From Candidatus Magasanikiibacteriota bacterium (GTDB taxonomy: Bacteria > Patescibacteriota > Patescibacteriia > Magasanikbacterales > GWA2-37-8): a stretch of DNA of 64,000 nucleotides. A model generated the notes under the pieces. The model saw only the letters and a list, made by a program, of their open reading frames with translations. It ran no database searches and had not been told where the DNA came from. The DNA lies in NCBI GenBank assembly GCA_963840935.1, contig CAWJAS010000001.1, forward strand, positions 579,834 through 643,833, in the 5' to 3' direction. The position numbers and the translations under genes were made by a program. Shown here piece by piece: positions 15,928 through 55,902 of the stretch. Each line of letters begins with the position of its first letter. The stretch's first letter is position 1.

Positions 15928-17079
15928 TTATTTTATCTCCCCTCCGCCCAAGCAAACGCCCTTAGAATAAAACACGGCGAATTGCCCCGGTGTTACCGCG
16001 CGTTGCGGTTGCGCGAATTTTACGATTAGATTACCACGTCGGCCTTTGGCCTTCTCGCAATGACATTGTTCAAGAGCCTGTCGGTGTCTAAGCCGTACTT
16101 CACATTTTAGCGGAAATTTGGGCTCTCGTCCAGCAATCCAATTGATATTTTTGACTTCCGCTTCGTTTGAATAAAGCATCGGGTCATTTTCAAATCCAAC
16201 TATCAATTGATTTTTTTTTGTATTTTTACCAACAATATATACCGACCGTTGGCTCTCATTTTTTAAACCAATTCTTTCTCCGATCGTATAAAAAGCCAAA
16301 CCGTCGTGCTCACCCAACACTTCACCCTTGGTTGAAGTGATGACGCCTTTTTTTGGTTTTATGGTTTTCATCAGGAATTTTTTCATCGGCACTTCGCCAA
16401 CAAAACAAATCCCCATGCTTTCTTCTTTTTGAGCCGTGGGCAAGCCGAATTTTTTGGCCAGATCCCTCACCTTCGTTTTTGGATACTCACCGATGGGAAA
16501 AATTATCTTTTTTAATTGCGTTTGATTAAGCTGATGCAAAAAATATGTCTGGTCTTTATTATCATCTTTTGCCGACAATAATTTGATTTTTTCTTTTTGT
16601 TCTTTTTTTGGAAATTTGATATTTGAAATTTGGAATTCCCGGTTTAACCGGGCATAGTGCCCGGTCGCCAAATAATCAAAACCTAATTTTTTTGCCTTTT
16701 GAAGCCAAGCGCCGAATTTAACAAATTTATTACACAGTACATCCGGATTCGGAGTTCTCCCGGCTTTGTATTCGCGGTACATATAGTCAAGCACAAATTT
16801 TTTGTACTCTCGCTTAAAGTCGAAACGCAAAAGAGGAATACCGATTTTTGCTGAAACCCGTAAAGCATCTTGATAATCGCCTCTCCAACAGGGCTTCGCT
16901 TCGCTACGCCCTGCAAGCGCCTCATGGGTGAATTTATCTGTAAAATCTTCATAATTAACCATAAAAGCGCCGGTCACATCATAGCCCAAGCGAACCAAAA
17001 GAGCGGCGGATACTGAAGAATCAACCCCGCCGGACATGGTGCATAATACTTTAATTTTTTTTGGTTTCGCGTTTTTCAT
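15928..17079 (-). CDS. mnmA: tRNA-specific 2-thiouridylase MnmA
   Basis: The PP-loop 'CTMSGGVDSSVSA' and the C-terminal 'AVTPGQFAVFY...CLGGG' are present. Two internal segments share DNA identity with the dispersed repeat family. Confidence 0.85.
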   Translation of the reverse strand: MKNAKPKKIKVLCTMSGGVDSSVSAALLVRLGYDVTGAFMVNYEDFTDKFTHEALAGRSEAKPCWRGDYQDALRVSAKIGIPLLRFDFKREYKKFVLDYMYREYKAGRTPNPDVLCNKFVKFGAWLQKAKKLGFDYLATGHYARLNREFQISNIKFPKKEQKEKIKLLSAKDDNKDQTYFLHQLNQTQLKKIIFPIGEYPKTKVRDLAKKFGLPTAQKEESMGICFVGEVPMKKFLMKTIKPKKGVITSTKGEVLGEHDGLAFYTIGERIGLKNESQRSVYIVGKNTKKNQLIVGFENDPMLYSNEAEVKNINWIAGREPKFPLKCEVRLRHRQALEQCHCEKAKGRRGNLIVKFAQPQRAVTPGQFAVFYSKGVCLGGGEIK

Positions 17080-28838: not shown

Positions 28839-28869
28839 TCATTGCGAGGATGTTTTGGAGAGTCAACGT

Positions 28870-28910
28870 TTTCCCCCTCTTGATAAGAGGGGGCTGAGGG
28901 GGAGTCTACA
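28870..28910 (+). repeat. palindromic repeat copy B
   Basis: The sequence is 'ttccccctcttgataagagggggctgagggggagtctacac'. It overlaps the stop of the galE-like gene. Confidence 0.8.
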
Positions 28911-46237: not shown

Positions 46238-47191
46238 TTAAATTGCTGAGTTTTGGTACCATTTGTAGGTAGATTCCAATCCTTCTTTCAATTCAAATTT
46301 TGGTTGCCAACCAAGATTATTGACTTTTGAACTGTCCATCAATCTTCCGGGGGTTCCGTCGGGCTTGGTTGTATCCCAAACAATATTTCCTTTGTATCCC
46401 GTAATTTCTTGAATCAAGTTTGCCAAATCTTTGATGTTTATATCTTTTCCAGCGCCCAAATTTACAAATATATCCCCTTTTTCATTTTGCTCTTTGGTCG
46501 GATTCAAATTATTCATGAGAAATATACAACCCTCTGCCATATCATCCACGTGCAAAAATTCACGACGAGGATTGCCTGTGCCCCAAAGTATTACTTCTTT
46601 ATCACCTTTAATTTTCGCTTCATGGAATTTGCGAATCATTGCCGGAATTACATGTGATTTTTCCAAATCAAAGTTATCATTAGGGCCATATAAATTAGCA
46701 GGCATTACGGAAATAAAATTTGTGCCATATTGACGATTGTAACTCTGACACATTTTTATGCCGGCGATTTTTGCCAAGGCGTACGGCTCATTGGTTGGCT
46801 CCAAAGTTCCGGTTAATAAATATTCTTCTTTGACGGGCTCTGGGGCAAATTTTGGATAAATGCAAACCGAACCCAAAAATAAAAGTTTTTTTACTCCGTT
46901 TACGTATGACTGGTGAATAATATTATTTTGAATTTGCAAATTTTCGTATATAAATTGTGCCGGGTATGTATTGTTTGCTTAAATCCCGCCGACTTTGGCG
47001 GCGGCCAAAATTACATACTCCGGTTTTTCTTGCGCGAAAAATTCGGCAGTTGCCTGTTGGTTTGTTAAATCAAGTTCTTCGATAGTGCGATAAACCAGAT
47101 TGTTGTAACCTTGGGCTTGCAAATTGCGGACCAAGGATGAACCGACAAGGCCGGTGTGGCCGGCGATGTAAATTTTGGATGTTTTTTGCAT
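46238..47191 (-). pseudogene. fcl: GDP-L-fucose synthase (fcl) interrupted by an in-frame TAA at 46979-46981
   Basis: The N-terminal part '[19 protein letters not shown]...AAKVGGI*' is followed in the same frame by '[22 protein letters not shown]...[13 protein letters not shown]'. The alignment to E. coli Fcl is collinear across the stop. Confidence 0.6.
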
Positions 47192-47203
47192 AATTTTTAA
47201 ATA

Positions 47204-47437
47204 AAATTCTTCGCTTCGCTCAGAATGACAGGTAACTGGATTCCCGCCTACGCGGGAATGACAGTGTGCGAATAAGATTGCTTCGGCGTCCCTTTGGGAC
47301 TTCTCGCAATGACAGGGCTTCGCTTCGCTACGCCCTGTAAACGCCAGGTTCACTTATTAACTACGCCCTGTAAACGCCAGATTCGCTTCGCTCAGAATGA
47401 CAACGAACTGGATTCCCGATCAAGTCGGGAATGACAA
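47204..47437. repeat. cluster of short GC-rich hairpin repeats (units ending ...cgc(t/a)(cag)aatgaca, and cagggcttcgcttcgctacgccctg) filling gmd-fcl spacer
   Basis: There are at least five sub-elements, and the same units recur at 16043, 16889, 28838, 50921 and 51226. Confidence 0.8.
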
Positions 47438-48448
47438 TTAGGATTCGCACATTATGGCTACGAGCTCTTTGAATTTAACTTTCGGTTCCCAACCAAGAAT
47501 ATTTTTTGCCTTGGTGGCATCGCCCAAAAGCAAATCCACTTCAGCCGGTCGAAAATATCGCTCATCAATTTCAATAATTGTTTTACCGGTATTTTTATCA
47601 ATTCCTTTTTCATCTTTTCCACTGCCTTGCCAAACAATATCAAAACCAAAAAAATTTCCCGCAGTTTCCGCGAATTCCCGCACAGTATGCGTTTCACCTG
47701 TGGCTATCACATAATCATCCGGTTTATCTTGCTGGAGCATCAGCCACATCGCTTCTACATAATCCTTGGCATATCCCCAATCGCGTTTGGCATCAAGATT
47801 ACCCAGATAAAGTTTTTCTTGTTTTCCTTCTTTGATATTTTTGAGCGCGTCGGTAATTTTTTTGGTGACAAAAGTTCCACCCCTGCGTGGCGATTCATGA
47901 TTAAACAAAATTCCATTGCAGGCAAACAAACCGTATGACTCGCGATAATTAACGGTTAAATAATGCGAATAAACCTTGGCGCACCCGTATGGACTGCGAG
48001 GATAAAACGGGGTGGTTTCTTTTTGCGGAGTTTCTTGAACTTTGCCAAACATTTCTGATGAGCCGGCTTGATAAAATTTTGTTTTTATACCCGATTCTTT
48101 GATCGCGTCAAGCAAGCGCAAAGTGCCGAGCCCAACGGTGTTACCGGTGTAAACCGGCATGTCAAAACTGACCTTCACATGACTTTGCGCGCCCAGATTA
48201 TATATTTCATCCGGCTTAATTTGCTCCAATAGTCGAGAAATATTACTGCCGTCAGTCAAGTCGCCATAATGCAAAAACAATTTTACTCCATTTACATGCG
48301 GGTCCTCATAAAGATGGTCTATACGCGAAGTATTAAAAGTACTGCTCCGGCGAATGAGGCCGTGGACTTCATAACCTTTTTCCAAAAGCAGTTCCGCCAA
48401 ATATGAACCGTCTTGACCGGTAATGCCGGTGATTAAAGCTTTTTTCAT
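47438..48448 (-). CDS. gmd: GDP-mannose 4,6-dehydratase
   Basis: '[19 protein letters not shown]' is present, and the C-terminal '...VAIMCES' resembles E. coli Gmd '...VAIALES'. Confidence 0.9.
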
Positions 48449-48450
48449 AA

Positions 48451-50463
48451 TTATTCTGTTGTTACTGTCCCCGTGGTTGAAGACACATACGGCGCGAATA
48501 TTTGGTCAATCGCCGTTTGATCATTGGCTGTTATGTTTGCGCCATTTTCCTCCGCCCAATCCATCATCTCAAAAGCTTTTTCAATTTCATTCATAGAAAG
48601 ATATGTATAAGCCAAACGCCAATAGCTCTCGCCCACTTTTTTATTTTCTTCCACCGCTTGCAAAAGAAGCTCGATTGATTTATCGGGTTGTCCCATTTGC
48701 ATGTGAAGTGTGGCGAGCGAGAAAATAAGCTGTTGACGCTTTGGCGAATATTTGAGCGCGGAGTTCAAACAATTCAATGAATCACTCAAATGCAAAGGGT
48801 TATTTTCCAAATAGGCTTTCATTTGCGCCAATTGCGCCAAACTAATAAAGTTTCGCACGTCATAAGGGTGCAATAACGTATTTTTCTCCAGTTCCGAATA
48901 CGATAAATCAAGAATATTTTTTGCCAAATTTGAATCAATCTGTTGGCCATAGGCGGAGATAAGCTGAGTTGCCGTTCTGCTAATATCGCTTCTAATGTCA
49001 TCAATATGCGGAGATTTATTATCAAAAGCAACGCGCATTTTTTCCAGCCCCAAAACAGGGTCGGTTGAAAGCGCCTTGATAGCGTCAAGGGTTTTCATAT
49101 TGGCTGATGCTGATTGAATGTTATAGGCGTTAATTGACAAAATAACTATTAAACCGGTGATGATAAGCGCTGGTGGACCGATTTTTTTATCATCTTTTCT
49201 TAATATCTCTTCTTCGTGGCGAATCGCTTCCACATCGGTTGTTTTATTAAGAGTCAGCCGATTAATCATCGCGAGCCAGAACATAAAATACAAATATGAT
49301 GTGATATTTTCAAATACCGTGATATTGCCAATAAAATGCGCTACCAAAAATCCACTTCCAATGGCAAGCAAATGAATGTCTATTTCTTTTTTGCGATAAC
49401 CCATTACGAGCGCCCAAAAAGCGACAAAAAATACGCCAAAATATGTGATAATGCCAAGCGCGCCCTGAACCGAAAGCGTGTTCATTACAATATTATGGGC
49501 GTTATCAAACCATGTTTCTCCATAGCCAAAATCAAGCGAACGCGGATTATAGTGCTGATTAAAAGCGTAAAAATAATTATTCGGGCCCCAGCCAAAAGCG
49601 GGTCGTTCAAGAAAGCTGTCCCAAGCGATTTCCCAGGCAATCCATCGGGGCGATGCTTTAATATCGGCAAGCGATGTGTTAACCGCTCTGCCAACCGCGG
49701 GAATATCTTTTACAAAATCAGTTTGACGATTGGCATACAAAACTCCGACAAAAATAATCATCAAGGCGATGGCACTGCCAATTACAATTCTTGTTTTTTT
49801 GTATCCGCGAAGAGCAATGGCATAAATTAAAAGCGTGGCGCCAATTCCGGCCACAAGTCCAAGCATGGCTCCGCGAGTTCCGCTAAAAAATAATCCTAGT
49901 ATGATAAAAATAAGCATTATGGCATAGGTATATTTCCAAATGCGATTTTTATCTTTCAAAATTAAAAGTACGGCCATGAAAGCCAAAAACAAAGCATAAC
50001 CGCCGACATAAATCGGATTGCCAAGGGTGCTCGCAATTCGTTCGGCGCCTTGATTCAAAAGTAATTGAGGGTTGCCGACCTGCAAAAGCCCAATAAACAT
50101 GACCGCGAGTCCGGCAAACAAAAAGATTCTCATGGCCCATTTCCATGAAGTCCAATTTTTTAGGAACTTTGAACACATCAAATAAAAAATAAAATAATGT
50201 ATGATGGTGAAAAAACCAAGCATTCTTTCGTGGTTATCCCAAAAACTGTGGTATGTGTCTGTGCCAAAAAAAGTGGATAAACCAAAACTCAAAATATAGA
50301 AACAAAAAACCGCGATGGTGAGCGGAGTAAAAGTCGGCTTGTATTCTTTCCAGTTGATTATCAAAAGCAAAACATACACGCCAAGCATTATCTCGATGAT
50401 GGTTCTAAAAATTACAATTTTTGGAACAATAAAACGGAAAAATGAATGAACCGGGCAAAACAA
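48451..50463 (-). CDS. O-antigen ligase/polymerase-like membrane protein with C-terminal TPR domain
   Basis: The N-terminal ~420 aa are polytopic, and the C-terminus has TPR-like repeats ('[33 protein letters not shown]'). Confidence 0.5.
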
Positions 50464-50657
50464 TGAGTGGAATAAAAAATGCCGTGTAAATAAGAATTTT
50501 GATAAGAAGCTCTAATTTTTGGCGATACATAAATTATGCTAAAAATCCGGACTTGCCGGTTGAATAATATTCATATATTTTATGGCAAAATGGAAGCAAT
50601 GTCAAACGAATTAATCTTGATTATTTGGGGAATTAATGATATTTTATTTTAATAATA

Positions 50658-50699
50658 GACTCCCCCTTAATCCCCCTCTTAATAAGAGGGGGGAAACTG
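50658..50699 (-). repeat. palindromic repeat copy C (inverted relative to A/B)
   Basis: The sequence is 'gactcccccttaatccccctcttaataagaggggggaaactg'. Confidence 0.8.
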
Positions 50700-50707
50700 C
50701 AAGAAAT

Positions 50708-51226
50708 ATGAAATATATTGCCAAAAATGAAGCGGAAACCGTTAAAATAGGCGAAAAAATCTCTGCCAAGCTTAAAGGCGGAGATATTTTGTGTTTGTAC
50801 GGGGATTTGGGCGCCGGAAAGACTACTTTGGTAAAAGGGTTGGCGAAAGGGTTTGGGATAACAAAAGAGGTGGTTAGTCCGTCGTTTGCGATTATGAATG
50901 TTTATGAAATTGGTGATTGCCGAAGGGATTCTTCGACTTCGCTCAGAATGACAGGGCTTCGCTTCGCTACGCCCTGTAAACGCCAAGCTAACTTAACTAT
51001 GCCCTGTAAACGAAAAAGCACAGTAAAACAGTTGGCGCATTTTGATTTGTATCGTTTAAAAGATGTTGAAGAATTTTTGGATACGGGTGGAGCGGATTAC
51101 TTGGGCGCGCCGGACACGATTTGTGTTATTGAATGGCCGGAAAAAATTGAGGAGCTTTTGAAAAATAAAAAAACGATTGACATAGCAATCGAGCATTTAA
51201 AAAATGGGAGAGAAATTAAATTTTAG
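50708..51226 (+). CDS. tsaE: tRNA t6A biosynthesis ATPase TsaE with ~30-aa in-frame repeat-derived insertion
   Basis: The P-loop 'GDLGAGKTT', 'SPSFAIMNVYE' and 'HFDLYRL' are present. A repeat-encoded segment lies between the last two motifs. Confidence 0.75.
   Translation: MKYIAKNEAETVKIGEKISAKLKGGDILCLYGDLGAGKTTLVKGLAKGFGITKEVVSPSFAIMNVYEIGDCRRDSSTSLRMTGLRFATPCKRQANLTMPCKRKSTVKQLAHFDLYRLKDVEEFLDTGGADYLGAPDTICVIEWPEKIEELLKNKKTIDIAIEHLKNGREIKF
50921..51012. repeat. dispersed hairpin repeat copy inside tsaE ORF
   Basis: 'cttcgacttcgctcagaatgacagggcttcgcttcgctacgccctgtaaacgcca...' is near-identical to 47381-47345. Confidence 0.8.
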
Positions 51227-51848
51227 GAGATTGCTTCGTCGACCCTTTGGGGCTCCTCGCAATGACAAGACGAACGTGGGATTGCTTCGGCGTCCCTTTG
51301 GGACTTCTCGCAATGACAGATAAGGAAAATTCGCAACCGCAATAATTTTGCCTATATATCCCCCGCTCTGATGTTAATTTTTGCCCTTTTTCTTGCCTGC
51401 CTTTGCTTTTCCAATTTTCATCCAAAAATTCCAAACCGAACTCATCCGCCAAGCGCTTTCCAATTCCGCCGATTATATCGGCGTTTTTGTTTCTGCCACT
51501 GGTCAAACTTGAGGCAAATATTTTAATATTATTTTCTTTGGCGTACTCCGCGGTTCGTTTTAGGCGCGATGCAAAACATACGGCGCATCTTTTGCCGGAT
51601 TCAGGCTCACCCTCCATTCCAGCAATCGCTTTTTTCCAGCTTTCGTGTTCATAATCAAGGTCGATGAATGGCACGCTCCATTCATCGCACACGCGGATAA
51701 CTTCGGCTTTGCGCTTTTCGTATTCATTTTTTGGAAAAATATTGGGATTATAAAACAAAACCGTTAAATCATATTGATTTTTCAGTTCATCAATAATTGC
51801 GATACTGCATGGAGCACAGCAAGCATGAAGCAAAAGCTGTTTTGCCAT
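51216..51848 (-). CDS. queH: epoxyqueuosine reductase QueH (DUF208) with repeat-derived C-terminal tail
   Basis: 'LLLHACCAPCS' and '...YCGCEFS' are present, followed by a 34-aa tail '[35 protein letters not shown]'. Confidence 0.75.
   Translation of the reverse strand: MAKQLLLHACCAPCSIAIIDELKNQYDLTVLFYNPNIFPKNEYEKRKAEVIRVCDEWSVPFIDLDYEHESWKKAIAGMEGEPESGKRCAVCFASRLKRTAEYAKENNIKIFASSLTSGRNKNADIIGGIGKRLADEFGLEFLDENWKSKGRQEKGQKLTSERGIYRQNYCGCEFSLSVIARSPKGTPKQSHVRLVIARSPKGSTKQSPKI
51226..51320. repeat. two tandem copies of the 'gattgcttcg(g/t)cg(t/a)ccctttggg(a/g)ct(t/c)ctcgcaatgaca' unit
   Basis: Direct sequence comparison with 47270-47313. Confidence 0.8.
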
Positions 51849-51851
51849 AAA

Positions 51852-53873
51852 TTATTTTTCAAACTTACCGGAAACAAGGGCAATCGCCTGACCGATCCAA
51901 TTTTCCACTTCTTTAATATCCAGTTCGCCAATTCCTCCTTTTTCCAAACGGCAAATAACTTTTAATTTGCCGGACGAGTCTTCGGTCACGGCAATGTTTT
52001 TGAAATGTTTTATTTCCATTCGCGATAACTCTTCATTCAATCGTGCCTCGTCGGATGCAGGTATTCCTTTCATTTGTTCAAGAATTAATTCCGCCAAACG
52101 CATCTTTTTTTCAATCTTCTTGCACATTTCACTGCCGTTTTCGGCTCTTTTGATGGCCGTCAAATGGTCGCTCAATAATTCATCGCTCTTTGCATCTTTA
52201 CTGTGGCGCTCGGAACCGCCGACCACTGTTTTTACCACTCTGGTGCCGGTTTCATTCTGAAGCGCAAGCATAAATTCTTCAAATACTTTCTGGTCACCCT
52301 TGTCTTCAATGGCCAAAGCGATTTCATCTCCGCCCACTCTGTCAATCGGGTCGGCGTCAGGAAAATATTTTTTGAACACCTCAAGCGCTTTTGCTCTGAT
52401 AGCGCGCATATTTTCCGTGATTTTATCACCGGCGACAATTGAGGCCTCGCGTAATTTTGTTTCGTCCTCACCCACTTCCTGAATCAATTGTTCATATTCC
52501 AAAAGCAAATCAACGCCCAAATCCAAAACATCGATATTTATATAAACACAATCTTTTAATTCAGATGCTTTTTTGTGAAAAAACTCCGGCGCGTCATAAG
52601 TTCCGTCTTTTTGGTCGGTTTTTAATTCGGCGGATAATTGTTCTCTGTCCGTTTGCGACAAATCGGCTTTCAAAACATATTTGCCTTCTTCGTTTTTTTC
52701 CACAAACTTTGACATTCTGTCAATTCGCGCGCTGATTTCACCGCCGACCGCTTCTTTGGCGGTAAACGGCTTTACCAAGTCAACAAGATTGATACGACGG
52801 ACATATTGCTGAACCATTCTGAATGTGTCAGCGTCGGAATCTTCCGGCTTGAATTGTCCTTTTCTTGTCAATCGCAACAAATCTCTATTCATGATTCTTT
52901 TACCATCTTTTTCTGTGAATACTTTATATTTAATTCCCATTTCATCGGTAATGGTTTTATCCAATAATTTATCGCCCAATTCATTGATGCCGTGTTCTCC
53001 TTTTATTTCATTAACCACGTTTTCGCGGTCATAGGCGCCACCATATGAATCTTTTGATAAACGACGCGACAACTGCGCTGTTTGAGCGCATTCGGCCAAA
53101 GCTTGAATAATATTTGATTTATCTGTTTCGTTTTGCGACTGGTCAACAACGCTTGTGCCAAAATTTATGCGATAACCCTCACCATCAGAGCCAAGCAAAT
53201 CACGCATTCTTGCGTATTTGCCCACATCCGCATCCCCGTCTTCGGCCAAGCGCGAATCAATCGCGGAATTAATCACTTCTTTCATTCGATTGTTGAGCGC
53301 GGATGAAATCGCGTTCATATCTTCTTCCGGCAGGGCTTCACCTGTTTTTGACAACTTGAACGACGCGCTTCGATAATCTTGCGATAACAACTCGTGCCCA
53401 GACTCGGCCATTAATTCATTCAAAATCTTTTTTCTGCTGTCGATTATGGAATCGGTTACTTGTTCGCCAAAAAGAGTATTCAAATTTTTAACCGAAAATT
53501 CACCACCCGGAGACGAAAAATATGCCATGGAATCCCCGGCTTTTAATTCTTTAAACATCGCGAACCAGCCCCGTTCTTTTATCATTCCGCCCAGTCGTTC
53601 GCGGTCGCTTTCTGAAAGTTCAGCGCCATTTTCAAGCGCTTCAACCAAGCTAGCCCTATCCAAATAATTTTTGACGCGCTCAATTGCCGACCGGTCTATC
53701 TTTGATTCGGATTCCGCTCCCAATTCGGCGGAAATACCATGAAGTATCGCATCGGCATCTCTTGGAAGAATTTCTCCAATATATTTGGGCAATTTTTCGC
53801 TCGACTCCGGGGCTTTTTTTGGTTCTGCTGACATATTATGTTCATTTATATTTTTTGCTCTTTCTGCTTCCAT
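51852..53873 (-). CDS. large acidic hypothetical protein with C-terminal GGDEF-like palm motif ('RVGGDEIALAI')
   Basis: Near the C-terminus the order IDVLDLGVD ... AGDKI ... RVGGDEI matches D-x-D / GD / GGDEF. Confidence 0.45.
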   Translation of the reverse strand: MEAERAKNINEHNMSAEPKKAPESSEKLPKYIGEILPRDADAILHGISAELGAESESKIDRSAIERVKNYLDRASLVEALENGAELSESDRERLGGMIKERGWFAMFKELKAGDSMAYFSSPGGEFSVKNLNTLFGEQVTDSIIDSRKKILNELMAESGHELLSQDYRSASFKLSKTGEALPEEDMNAISSALNNRMKEVINSAIDSRLAEDGDADVGKYARMRDLLGSDGEGYRINFGTSVVDQSQNETDKSNIIQALAECAQTAQLSRRLSKDSYGGAYDRENVVNEIKGEHGINELGDKLLDKTITDEMGIKYKVFTEKDGKRIMNRDLLRLTRKGQFKPEDSDADTFRMVQQYVRRINLVDLVKPFTAKEAVGGEISARIDRMSKFVEKNEEGKYVLKADLSQTDREQLSAELKTDQKDGTYDAPEFFHKKASELKDCVYINIDVLDLGVDLLLEYEQLIQEVGEDETKLREASIVAGDKITENMRAIRAKALEVFKKYFPDADPIDRVGGDEIALAIEDKGDQKVFEEFMLALQNETGTRVVKTVVGGSERHSKDAKSDELLSDHLTAIKRAENGSEMCKKIEKKMRLAELILEQMKGIPASDEARLNEELSRMEIKHFKNIAVTEDSSGKLKVICRLEKGGIGELDIKEVENWIGQAIALVSGKFEK

Positions 53874-53964: not shown

Positions 53965-55902
53965 TTATAATTGTACTCGGAATAACCGCCAGTCGGACCA
54001 AGAAGTGTATGTGCCGTCCGTAAACTTTGCGCGGACGCGCACTCTGTATTCATTTGAATATTTGAGGTCCAAACCGACGCTGGTTAAAACTGAAGTGTAC
54101 AATCCTTCTTCAAGCCAGCCGGTGCCCGATTTGTAATTAACATTAATTTCGTATGACACGGCGCCGGTAATGGTATACCAAGTCGGAAAAACATATCGTG
54201 AATATAATGTTTGATTTTCTGTTGGCGTGGAAATGACAGGCGAGGTGTAGCTGTATGATGAGCCGATGTTATAATTGAAATATCTATAATCAGACCAATT
54301 GGTGTAATTGCCGTCACTAAAATTCGCTCTTACTTGAACGCGATATTCATTTGTATAATATAAATATTTAGTCAAATAAAGCGAAGTTACATTTGTGTTT
54401 GATTCAATAAGCCAGTTGCTTCCTGATTTGTATTCAACACGGACATTGTATGAAGTCGCGCTAGGAACTGAATTCCAACGAACAGTCACGGATTGGCTGG
54501 ATGAAAAATATTGGTTCGCATATGGATCGGTGATTGTCGGCGGAGATTGCGGGTTATAATAACTGTCGCTTTGACCAATATTAAAATATCTCCAATCGGA
54601 ATAATTGGTAGTAACGCCATCAACAAAGACACCACGAACACTTACGCGATATTCATTTGTGTATGGAAAGTATTTGGTTAAATAAAGAGAAGTGACATTT
54701 GTGTTTGACTCACTATACCAATTTCCATTTGATTCATATTCGATTCGAACATCATAAGCCGTCGCATTTGTGACCGAATTCCATCTCACGGTTACATTTG
54801 AGCCGGTAGAATAATATTGGTTGGCGTATGGTTCGGTGATGGTCGGGGCAGTGTAGGAATAATTGTTATTACTTTGTCCGACATTGAAATATCTCCAATC
54901 GGAATAATTGGTAGTAACGCCATCAACAAATACACCGCGAACGCTCACTCGATATTCATTTGTGTAGGAAAAATATTTGGTTAAATAAAGAGAAGTGACA
55001 TTTGTGTTAGACTCACTATACCAATTTCCATTTGATTCATATTCAATTCGGACATCATAAGCCGTCGCATTTGTGACCGAATTCCATCTCACGGTTACAT
55101 TTGAGCCGGTAGAATAATATTGGTTGGCGTATGGTTCGGTGATGGTCGGAGCAGTGTAGGAATAATTGTTATTATTGTTGTTGTTTGTGGAATAAGTATT
55201 ATAAAAATATCTCCAAGAAGACCATTCACTTTTGTTACCCAAATTGTCTCCGGCATAAACACGATAGCGGAATTGTCCATCACCCCAATTTGATATGTTG
55301 TAATTAACAGCACTCACGCCGGAAGAAATAATTTGAGAATCCTTGCTTTCCCATTGGCTCAAAGAAGTATTCCATTTATGAACTTCGTAGCCGTATTTGG
55401 TGGCGGAATTCACATCAGACCAATCAAAATATATTGAGGATTGATTATATTGTTCCCCATTGTTTGGAAGATTAATACTTGGTGTGCTTAATTTTGTTTG
55501 ATTTTTGGTATTGAAAGTAAAATATCTATATTCAGACCATTGGCCGACTTGGTTGTTCCACATATTGCCGACCGCGCGCACACGCCAGCGAAATTGATTG
55601 TCGGCTCCGGGAACTGTAACGCTAAAAGTATTGCCGACGACATTATATGTTCTGGCATTTTGCCATTTAATTGTTTTGCTAACGCAAGTGTCGCAAGCGA
55701 TTTCCACTTGATAATTATTGGCTCCATAAATGGAAGTCCAACTGAAATTAGCCATCCTCGGATAATTGGTCAAAACCTGATTATTTGTGGGATAGCTGAG
55801 CGACGGCGCGTTGTAGGCGGCCTTTGCCGGATATGATATGCCAAAAGCCGTAAAAATAACGGCAAAAACTAAAACCCAGTTAAAAATGCGATTCATTTTC
55901 AT
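53965..55902 (-). CDS. secreted/cell-surface protein with four ~100-aa tandem beta-rich (FN3/Ig-like) repeats
   Basis: A signal peptide 'MKMNRIFNWVLVFAVIFTAFGISYPAKA' is present. Repeats 2 and 3 are nearly identical at the DNA level. Confidence 0.6.
   Translation of the reverse strand: MKMNRIFNWVLVFAVIFTAFGISYPAKAAYNAPSLSYPTNNQVLTNYPRMANFSWTSIYGANNYQVEIACDTCVSKTIKWQNARTYNVVGNTFSVTVPGADNQFRWRVRAVGNMWNNQVGQWSEYRYFTFNTKNQTKLSTPSINLPNNGEQYNQSSIYFDWSDVNSATKYGYEVHKWNTSLSQWESKDSQIISSGVSAVNYNISNWGDGQFRYRVYAGDNLGNKSEWSSWRYFYNTYSTNNNNNNNYSYTAPTITEPYANQYYSTGSNVTVRWNSVTNATAYDVRIEYESNGNWYSESNTNVTSLYLTKYFSYTNEYRVSVRGVFVDGVTTNYSDWRYFNVGQSNNNYSYTAPTITEPYANQYYSTGSNVTVRWNSVTNATAYDVRIEYESNGNWYSESNTNVTSLYLTKYFPYTNEYRVSVRGVFVDGVTTNYSDWRYFNIGQSDSYYNPQSPPTITDPYANQYFSSSQSVTVRWNSVPSATSYNVRVEYKSGSNWLIESNTNVTSLYLTKYLYYTNEYRVQVRANFSDGNYTNWSDYRYFNYNIGSSYSYTSPVISTPTENQTLYSRYVFPTWYTITGAVSYEINVNYKSGTGWLEEGLYTSVLTSVGLDLKYSNEYRVRVRAKFTDGTYTSWSDWRLFRVQL
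54584..55190. repeat. 2 x 303-bp near-perfect tandem repeat inside surface-protein gene
   Basis: 'aaatatctccaatcggaataattggtagtaacgccatcaacaaa...' recurs at 54584 and 54887. Confidence 0.8.

Follow-up and report, generated by a model that had tools for sequence, protein, structure and literature searches.

How does an enzyme gene come to end in a dispersed repeat? The question is raised by queH, which encodes an epoxyqueuosine reductase, in a stretch of 64,000 nucleotides (nt) of contig CAWJAS010000001.1 (hereafter the window, meaning the whole stretch that was analysed). Its host is a Candidatus Magasanikbacteria-like representative of Patescibacteria (the candidate phyla radiation, or CPR) with a small genome of about 0.8 Mb. 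After the conserved end of the enzyme (YCGCEFS, with the codon of Ser175 ending at position 51324) the open reading frame (ORF) runs on for another 35 residues (176-210), and this tail is encoded by two units of a short GC-rich repeat. We argue, with good though not complete confidence, that one or more units resembling repetitive extragenic palindromes (REPs) were inserted at the end of queH or replaced it, which would have removed the stop codon and added a disordered tail that is tolerated by the enzyme.

The repeat unit, GATTGCTTCGNCGNCCCTTTGGGNCTNCTCGCAATGACA, is present twice at the end of queH and a third time between genes about 4 kb away, where it is identical to the proximal queH copy (Table 1); against these three matches none was expected from 100 shuffles. 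Both queH units have the same orientation and are 12 nt apart, which gives a period of 51 nt or 17 codons, so that both are read in one frame. A preliminary description of this locus had already attributed the tail to two repeat units, and this is confirmed by the positions of the two copies. Four of its details had to be amended, one of which, the extent of the overlap with tsaE, is treated below. The tail measures 35 residues in the translated ORF rather than 34. The units had been called tandem; in fact they are direct repeats with a 12-nt spacer, and Tandem Repeats Finder, run on 50000-52500, calls no array at the queH site because the copies are spaced rather than abutting. The stop codon, too, had been assigned to the repeat, but the TAA is found in the AT-rich flank, outside both units and 10 nt away from where the distal one ends. 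For the classification of the pair, a tandem repeat was rejected on account of the spacer and the empty Tandem Repeats Finder result, and a CRISPR-like array was rejected in view of the two units only, the 12-nt spacer and the dispersed copies of the unit.

The reading frames explain how the tail ends. All three minus-strand frames are open through both units and each of them terminates in the flank, after 32-41 codons; in the unit itself a stop occurs in one of the six frames only, on the opposite strand. Since the units are GC-rich and free of stops in every frame of the minus strand, translation has to continue to the first stop in the AT-rich flank; coding sequence is therefore contributed by the repeat, and the stop by what lies beyond it. 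This first in-frame stop now falls inside the last codons of the convergent gene tsaE. An overlap of the tail with the end of tsaE at 51226 had been described before, and for the ORFs this holds: they share 11 nt (51216-51226). The shared part is flank only, however, as the tsaE stop is followed by 2 nt before the units begin at 51229.

To compare the ends of queH in relatives we used the best 120 QueH homologues, which come mostly from Candidatus Magasanikbacteria and other Patescibacteria and are mostly 175-185 residues long. In the 118 other homologues that have the CGCx[F/Y] motif, the sequence after CGCx[F/Y]S extends over 1-22 residues (most often 3-8). These tails are variable, unconserved and not homologous to the tail in the window, which with its 35 residues is the longest. 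Of the relatives that have no repeat at this place, the closest (P0003, 84% identity, locus L001) ends in CGCEYSI and a stop codon, followed by an AT-rich spacer of 138 nt before tsaE. Another relative (P0002, 83% identity, locus L004) carries a single unit of 37 nt at the identical junction (TTATC, then TGTCATTGCGAG...), which by position corresponds to the distal unit of the window. Its downstream flank, CTCCTAAAAT, is the same as that of the window and its tail reads LSVIARRPKADEAIS before the stop. It uses a different TAA of the shared flank than queH in the window, because its unit measures 37 nt rather than 39 nt. Three related lineages show zero (P0003), one (P0002) and two units (window) at the end of queH. 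Among five orthologous loci, similarity at the DNA level is lost right after the codon of Ser175.

The proposal that the repeat rewrote the 3' end of queH is thus supported by the comparison of sequences: it is borne out by the repeat-free end of P0003, by the one-unit end of P0002 and by the tails of 1-22 residues in the other homologues. The comparison of orthologue lengths that had been suggested earlier was carried out, and repeat-free relatives have no homologous tail. What we infer (the direction and order of events, their neutrality and the mode of unit movement) would read as follows. The genome would be peppered with short GC-rich hairpins carrying a CGTC or TGTC tag (here a TGTC tag and an ATTxx arm, with an xxAAT arm and a short tail at the other end). 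Within the narrow space that separates the convergent genes queH and tsaE, one such unit would have taken the place of the native queH end or been inserted there, thereby eliminating the original stop codon. A second unit together with 12 nt would have been added later in the lineage of the window, or the relative would have lost one; we make no choice between the two. Both units would then be read through as far as the first stop of the AT-rich flank, and the outcome would be a QueH with an intact core and a basic tail of 35 residues. The distal unit is probably the older copy of the pair, because one of its four mismatches to the proximal unit disrupts a pair of the inner stem.

The end of queH is not the only target. 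In P0004 a TGTCATTCTGAGCG... unit lies 12 nt past the queH stop and the protein has an internal CHSE insert. P0005 (locus L126) contains three to four internal CHSE units, and its C-terminus LPSPF and stop codon are taken from the loop of a hairpin, CCCTCTCC-TTTTTAA-GGAGAGGG (L126, 2160-2186). Overall, we recognise segments derived from repeats in roughly 12 of the 120 QueH homologues compared, and it appears from these sequences that queH has been invaded by repeats repeatedly in the CPR phylum. In seven further CPR homologues (P0070, P0086, P0088, P0111, P0024, P0107 and P0040) we observed in-frame segments from other GC-rich repeat families at three other positions (GRPTSA...ATAGKQES, DPSTG(L/Q)RTS and PSSPPPTRGR). 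The L126 hairpin is a sister form of a second hairpin repeat type of the window, CCCCCTCTT(A/G)ATAAGAGGGGG, which occurs at 28868-28902 and 50663-50697, both intergenic. In two relatives (L125 and L126) the contig breaks off within a repeat unit, 41 nt and 8 nt past queH. As repeats break short-read assemblies, their abundance in metagenome-assembled genomes of CPR bacteria is probably under-estimated.

The enzyme itself does not seem to be affected. The assignment to QueH is clear (Pfam PF02677, E = 1.4e-61, residues 5-176 against profile positions 1-173 of 175) and the structure of Thermotoga maritima QueH (PDB 7lc5, E = 1.1e-33) can be aligned as far as residue 177. In an alignment of 59 sequences all 48 invariant columns are retained, including C10, C11, C14, C88, C91, C170 and C172; the conserved cysteines of a full-length member of the family are therefore present, together with the C-terminal CGC motif. 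Taken together, the profile match, the structural alignment and the invariant columns and cysteines indicate that the catalytic core is intact. With the same alignment as input, AlphaFold2 predicts the core at a pLDDT (predicted local distance difference test) above 90. Towards the C-terminus it gives a short helix (173-181) and then coil at a pLDDT of 54-63, so residues 181-210 are predicted to be disordered.

Table 1 Positions of the queH gene, its two repeat units and related copies in the window
Feature	Position	Strand	Description
queH coding sequence	51216..51848	-	210 amino acids (aa); residues 1-175 (51324-51848) conserved epoxyqueuosine reductase core; 176-210 added tail
Proximal repeat unit (unit 2)	51280..51318	-	Reads TGTCATTGCGAGAAGTCCCAAAGGGACGCCGAAGCAATC; encodes roughly S177-Q189; 100% identical to intergenic 47276-47314
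Predicted fold of unit 2			TGTC tag; outer stem ATTGC/GCAAT; internal loop; inner stem GTCCC/GGGAC with AAA loop
Spacer between units	51268..51279	-	12 nt, CCACGTTCGTCT; contributes S-H-V-R-L
Distal repeat unit (unit 1)	51229..51267	-	TGTCATTGCGAGGAGCCCCAAAGGGTCGACGAAGCAATC; 39 nt; 4 mismatches in 39 to unit 2
AT-rich flank	51216..51228	-	TCCTAAAATTTAA; holds queH stop TAA (51216-51218); common to relative L004
tsaE	50708..51226	+	Convergent with queH; stop TAG 51224-51226; Pfam TsaE 9.8e-37 in two stretches
tsaE insert	50915-51022	within tsaE (+)	Residues 70-105, 36 residues in frame; TGTCATTCTGAGCGAAG- and TGGCGTTTACAGGGCGTAG-type modules of the same superfamily
Intergenic unit copy	47276..47314	-	Identical to unit 2; inside the 47205-47436 mosaic
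Intergenic mosaic	47205-47436	one orientation	230 nt; five TGTC-tagged hairpins of three types and two TGGCGTTTACAGGGCGTAG modules
Divergent copy of the queH unit type	16029..16065	-	TGTCATTGCGAGAAGGCCAAAGGCCGACGTGGTAATC; in frame in mnmA, reads CHCEKAKGRRGNL

To which family does the unit belong? The best match is the superfamily of REPs with a CGTC or TGTC tag, described by Di Nocera, De Gregorio & Rocco (2013, BMC Genomics 14:522, PMC3733652), which includes dRS3 of Neisseria and RPE-4 and RPE-6 (Rickettsia palindromic elements, RPE). According to this survey the tag is often TGTC, stems open with A-T pairs and tails are CCA-like. The repeats favour gaps between convergent or co-directional genes near ORF ends; copies are also found inside ORFs (about 10% of those at ORF 3' ends) and the repeats are not known to have a transposase of their own. 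In the published families one stem of 8-9 bp carries a loop of 4-5 nt (other loop lengths occur in some families), and dimers are mostly head-to-head.

Several of these properties recur at queH. Both units start with TGTC, followed by ATTGC...GCAAT, and this outer stem, with A-T as its first and second pairs, is common to all predicted folds. The proximal unit, taken along the minus strand, can be divided into TGTC-ATTGC-GAGAA-GTCCC-AAA-GGGAC-GCCGAA-GCAAT-C, i.e. tag, 5-bp outer stem, purine-rich internal loop, inner stem-loop and C-rich tail. The unpaired tetranucleotide tag (including its TGTC variant) and the stem opening with A-T are shared with the published repeats, as are the position in a convergent gap near ORF ends, the intragenic copies and the lack of a transposase gene beside the units of the window; the short C-rich tail may be a further point of agreement. 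The bases that follow the units, to be compared with the CCA consensus, are C-CCA for the proximal unit, CTCC for the distal one and CTTA for the copy at 47276. Other properties differ. Instead of a single stem of 8-9 bp, the 39-nt unit has a two-tiered one (5-bp outer stem, internal loop of 5-6 by 6-7 nt, variable inner stem of 4-5 bp, 3-nt loop). The units are not arranged as head-to-head dimers: both the queH pair and the cluster at 47.2 kb are head-to-tail, an order called negligible in PMC3733652. Given the longer, two-tiered stem and the head-to-tail order, we file the queH unit as a TGTC-tagged REP-like hairpin that forms a variant subfamily of the CGTC/TGTC superfamily, outside its four named families.

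The framework of the unit is widespread. We scanned one genome per species with the pattern TGTCATTGCGAG-N13-23-GAAGCAATC and obtained at least 120 matching stretches from more than 20 phyla; the matches listed include Chloroflexota, Alpha- and Gammaproteobacteria, Patescibacteria, Cyanobacteria, Bacteroidota, Planctomycetota, Nitrospirota and Rickettsiales. Patescibacteria and most of these phyla fall outside the five phyla covered in PMC3733652. The 141 distinct units among the matches listed differ in their inner sequences and yet form hairpins, with a mean perfect inner stem of 3.66 bp against 2.54 bp after shuffling. The base of the unit is conserved, with a tip that is free to vary. A literature search with peptides encoded by the repeats (FAPRND, RFRGND, CHCEE and others) returned irrelevant papers only, and no paper linking CPR bacteria with REPs was found in the limited literature searched.

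The same repeats are seen elsewhere in the window, which holds three close copies and one divergent copy of the queH unit type and about ten TGTC-tagged units of all types. Five TGTC-tagged units lie together in the mosaic at 47205-47436, located between the gene for GDP-mannose dehydratase (47438-48448) and an fcl-like gene and beginning 1 nt after the upstream stop codon. One of its units (47236-47263, TGTCATTCCCGCGTAGGCGGGAATCCA) can be read as TGTC ATTCCCGC GTAG GCGGGAAT CCA and fits the description of CGTC-1 exactly (8-bp stem, 4-nt loop and CCA tail; PMC3733652). A TGTCATTCTGAGCGAAGCGAAGAAT unit with the same framework has several copies in the window. The 12-nt spacer of the queH pair, CCACGTTCGTCT, is absent after the mosaic copy at 47276, whose next 12 bases are TTATTCGCACAC.

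Two more genes contain repeats in frame. In mnmA (15928-17079, minus strand), which encodes the tRNA 2-thiouridylase, there are two repeat-derived segments: the divergent unit near the C-terminus (16029-16065, CHCEKAKGRRGNL) and AGRSEAKPC near the N-terminus (16879-16932). Compared to PDB 2hma the C-terminal segment adds only about three residues and therefore largely replaces native sequence. In tsaE the insert parts the conserved halves of the protein: between residues 69 and 106 of the query the chain of PDB 5np9 advances from 72 to 73. Its relatives in L001 and L004 have different modules at the identical site. There is an apparent bias of in-frame units towards genes related to tRNA (seen in queH, tsaE and mnmA, not in fmt and alaS), for which the number of genes is too small to be tested.

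How might such units move? In a first survey we examined the small proteins encoded near units in the repeat-selected loci (at least 120). Besides generic ABC ATPases the only recurring small family is a stand-alone GIY-YIG nuclease of about 95 aa (PF01541, E = 2.7e-15), present in four loci (L031, L083, L096 and L123) from four phyla with a mutual identity of 52-60%. The cluster of ABC ATPases (15 loci) was dismissed as a generic, abundant family. A unit of the TGTC...GCAATC type is found close upstream of the GIY-YIG start codon (ATG) in three of these four loci; in three the stop codon is shortly followed by a GATTGC...GCAATGAC unit in inverted orientation, and all four have further units on both sides of the gene.

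As these loci had been selected by their repeats, we set up a repeat-unbiased test with 80 metagenome loci (L127-L206) that were fetched by the GIY-YIG protein alone. Here GTCATTGC occurs within 250 nt upstream of the gene in 51/74 cases and GCAATGAC within 250 nt downstream in 60/76; both are present in 43/70. For these loci the background amounts to 0.16-0.18 per kb in each orientation, and about 4% was expected. The TGA stop of the nuclease gene often abuts the GATTGC that opens the downstream unit, and loci without the exact motif show compensatory outer arms (ACTGC/GCAGT, ATCGC/GCGAT and ATTCT/AGAAT). Nucleotide similarity between the cassettes is restricted to the gene and the units. The two units that flank a gene share tag, outer stem and internal loop only; their interpretation as true terminal inverted repeats was rejected, given an inner-part likeness of 0.60 within a cassette against 0.55 between cassettes (with 3/34 at 0.9 or more). 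The nuclease family is large (at least 7,999 of 8,000 candidates at E <= 1e-10), mostly 95-97 aa long and in many cases located on very short contigs. Isolate genomes (L207-L209) show the association as well: in Thermodesulfovibrio aggregans the gene lies inside a directly repeated mosaic of units, and in Calothrix units are found only downstream of it.

The association between the GIY-YIG gene and the units across many phyla is solid. Its interpretation is more tentative: based on these sequences it is possible, though somewhat less than an even chance in our estimation, that the CGTC/TGTC hairpins are non-autonomous partners of the stand-alone nuclease, which would mobilise them and in this way remodel coding sequences of CPR bacteria, including queH, tsaE and mnmA. 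Causality could also be reversed, with the GIY-YIG gene homing into repeats. In the limited literature searched we found no paper that links GIY-YIG genes with REPs or with miniature inverted-repeat transposable elements.

Four observations weigh against the insertion of a mobile REP-type unit as we propose it. First, a single queH unit folds weakly as DNA, with a minimum free energy of -3.2 to -5.7 kcal/mol and z-scores of -0.2 to -2.2. Second, it departs from the published CGTC families in its two-tiered stem, internal loop and head-to-tail order. Third, no GIY-YIG, RAYT or other transposase gene was detected with Pfam among the about 40 ORFs of the window that were scanned, nor did tblastn of the window with four GIY-YIG proteins give a match. 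Fourth, two lineages that share only 83% identity in QueH have both kept the extended queH, which fits tolerance but would also fit usefulness.

Usefulness might reside in the nucleic acid rather than in the protein. The units could serve the host as 3'-end hairpins that stabilise or terminate the transcripts of queH and tsaE, their translation being incidental. They fill the whole convergent gap, and gaps of this kind are where REPs are preferentially located (PMC3733652). Folded as RNA, each unit reaches -10.5 to -12.3 kcal/mol, and across phyla the outer stem and internal loop are conserved while the inner stems vary, which suggests a structure that is recognised. We nevertheless consider such a role rather unlikely. 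The units lack the U-tract expected of an intrinsic terminator, and a scan for terminators and promoters reports no site at 51229-51318 (nearest calls at 51467 and 51191). Folding of the 141-nt region as RNA is no better than that of shuffled sequences (z = +0.47). Neither is there an Rfam match: a scan of 46900-51600 against Rfam 15 at permissive E-values gave three chance-level hits (E = 0.2-1, far below the gathering score), none of them at the units. Furthermore, many copies lie within coding regions, where a terminator would do harm.

The orientation of the units points in the same direction. Nine of ten TGTC-tagged units between 16 and 51 kb (a small sample) share one chromosomal orientation irrespective of gene direction: those in queH and mnmA are in sense, those in tsaE in antisense. 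GC skew on the plus strand is negative over 1-56 kb, which would place the TGTC reading on the template of the lagging strand. The shared orientation fits a property of the DNA strand, or one linked to replication, better than a property of the transcript.

Alternatively, it is the peptide that would be useful: the tail may have been co-opted as a flexible Lys/Arg-rich extension that aids tRNA binding or localisation and is kept by selection. Its composition (8 Lys/Arg and 1 His without any acidic residue) and predicted flexibility would suit such a function, the relative with only 83% QueH identity has likewise kept an extension made from a unit at this junction, and tsaE and mnmA, which also act in tRNA modification, carry in-frame units. 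Still, we regard co-option as improbable. The proximal unit is base-for-base identical to the intergenic copy, hence it shows no coding-specific change and was not shaped as coding sequence. Persistence of the ORF needs no selection with all frames open, and the tail of the relative (RRPKADEAIS) is less basic and ends in a different frame. Most likely, the tail is a tolerated by-product of selfish or neutral spread of the repeat rather than an adapted domain, because this unit is identical to a non-coding copy, because another frame of this unit type is used in mnmA (giving CHCEKAKGRRGNL) and because native QueH tails are short, variable and unconserved. The event at queH was most likely neutral for the enzyme.

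A mis-assembly of short repeats in this metagenome-assembled genome, with the real queH ending earlier, is very improbable: the proximal unit does have an identical copy 4 kb away and the contigs of two relatives do break at repeats downstream of queH, but the order of queH, tsaE and Wzy_C on both sides is that of independently assembled relatives, one such assembly carries a unit at the same junction, the sequence shared with the other copy ends precisely with the 39-nt unit and shows no rearrangement, and removal of the units still leaves no stop codon at the junction.

Insertion of REP-type units into queH can be compared to other known systems. Palindromic elements of Rickettsia are reportedly located in protein-coding genes, as Ogata et al. 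are said to have described in Science in 2000. What both cases have in common is that selfish palindromes are found in frame in housekeeping genes of a bacterium with a small genome, that the added peptides are tolerated and that in related lineages one gene carries insertions at different sites. They differ in size and distribution, RPE-1 being about 100-150 bp and specific to Rickettsia whereas the units described here are 25-40 nt and of a pan-bacterial type, and also in effect: RPE insert internally, whereas at queH the terminus is replaced together with the stop codon.

A second comparison concerns the REPIN/RAYT system and the REPtrons, in which tagged hairpins bracket a dedicated enzyme gene as inverted copies (PMC2817692, Nunvar et al. 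2010; PMC3116915, Bertels & Rainey 2011). The GIY-YIG cassettes are built alike, with inverted units, their tags facing outward, on either side of an enzyme gene. Their tag is TGTC/CGTC and not GTAG, however, and the enzyme is a GIY-YIG protein of about 95 aa instead of an IS200-like Y1 (HUH) transposase. The queH units themselves do not qualify as REPIN/RAYT: their tag is TGTC, they do not form inverted pairs and the scanned ORFs of the window include no Y1 transposase. Finally, GTAG REPs can supply the TAG stop of a flanking ORF (PMC3733652). As at queH, the repeat then abuts a gene end and helps to define the terminus of the ORF; in contrast, the queH repeat provides coding sequence and the stop comes from the flank beyond.

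Some other features of the window are worth mentioning. The fcl-like epimerase gene next to the mosaic (46238-47191, minus strand) is interrupted by an in-frame TAA at 46979-46981, within a conserved motif (AAKVGGI, stop, ANNTYP), which results in two ORFs; this may reflect a pseudogene, a sequencing error or recoding, and we make no choice among them. Upstream of queH lies an ORF of 673 aa (51852-53873, minus strand) without a Pfam match; it is syntenic in relatives, whose copies have no Pfam hit either. The ORF at 53965-55902 (645 aa, minus strand) has no Pfam match and contains three tandem repeats of about 300 nt (54250-55158, 65-93% identity). Between 32000 and 44000 an island of low GC content (0.32-0.33, compared with about 0.40 elsewhere), whose GC skew is strongly negative, is rich in genes for glycosyltransferases, methyltransferases and flippases; it may represent a horizontally acquired surface-polysaccharide cluster.

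Summing up, the end of queH represents a known phenomenon, the entry of palindromes of the REP or RPE type into coding sequence, observed in this case for a variant unit in a new lineage. The series of zero, one and two units provides a clean, dated example in which a REP-type repeat erases a stop codon and lengthens an enzyme of an essential pathway. Contrary to expectation, selfish DNA is apparently tolerated even in a genome of such small size. For annotation this implies a warning, as odd C-termini and inserts in CPR proteins can be repeat-derived (e.g. VIARSPKG..., CHSE..., CHCE... and ...RND/AMT). Finally, the GIY-YIG lead makes the question from the 2013 survey of what mobilises the CGTC/TGTC REPs (PMC3733652) directly testable.

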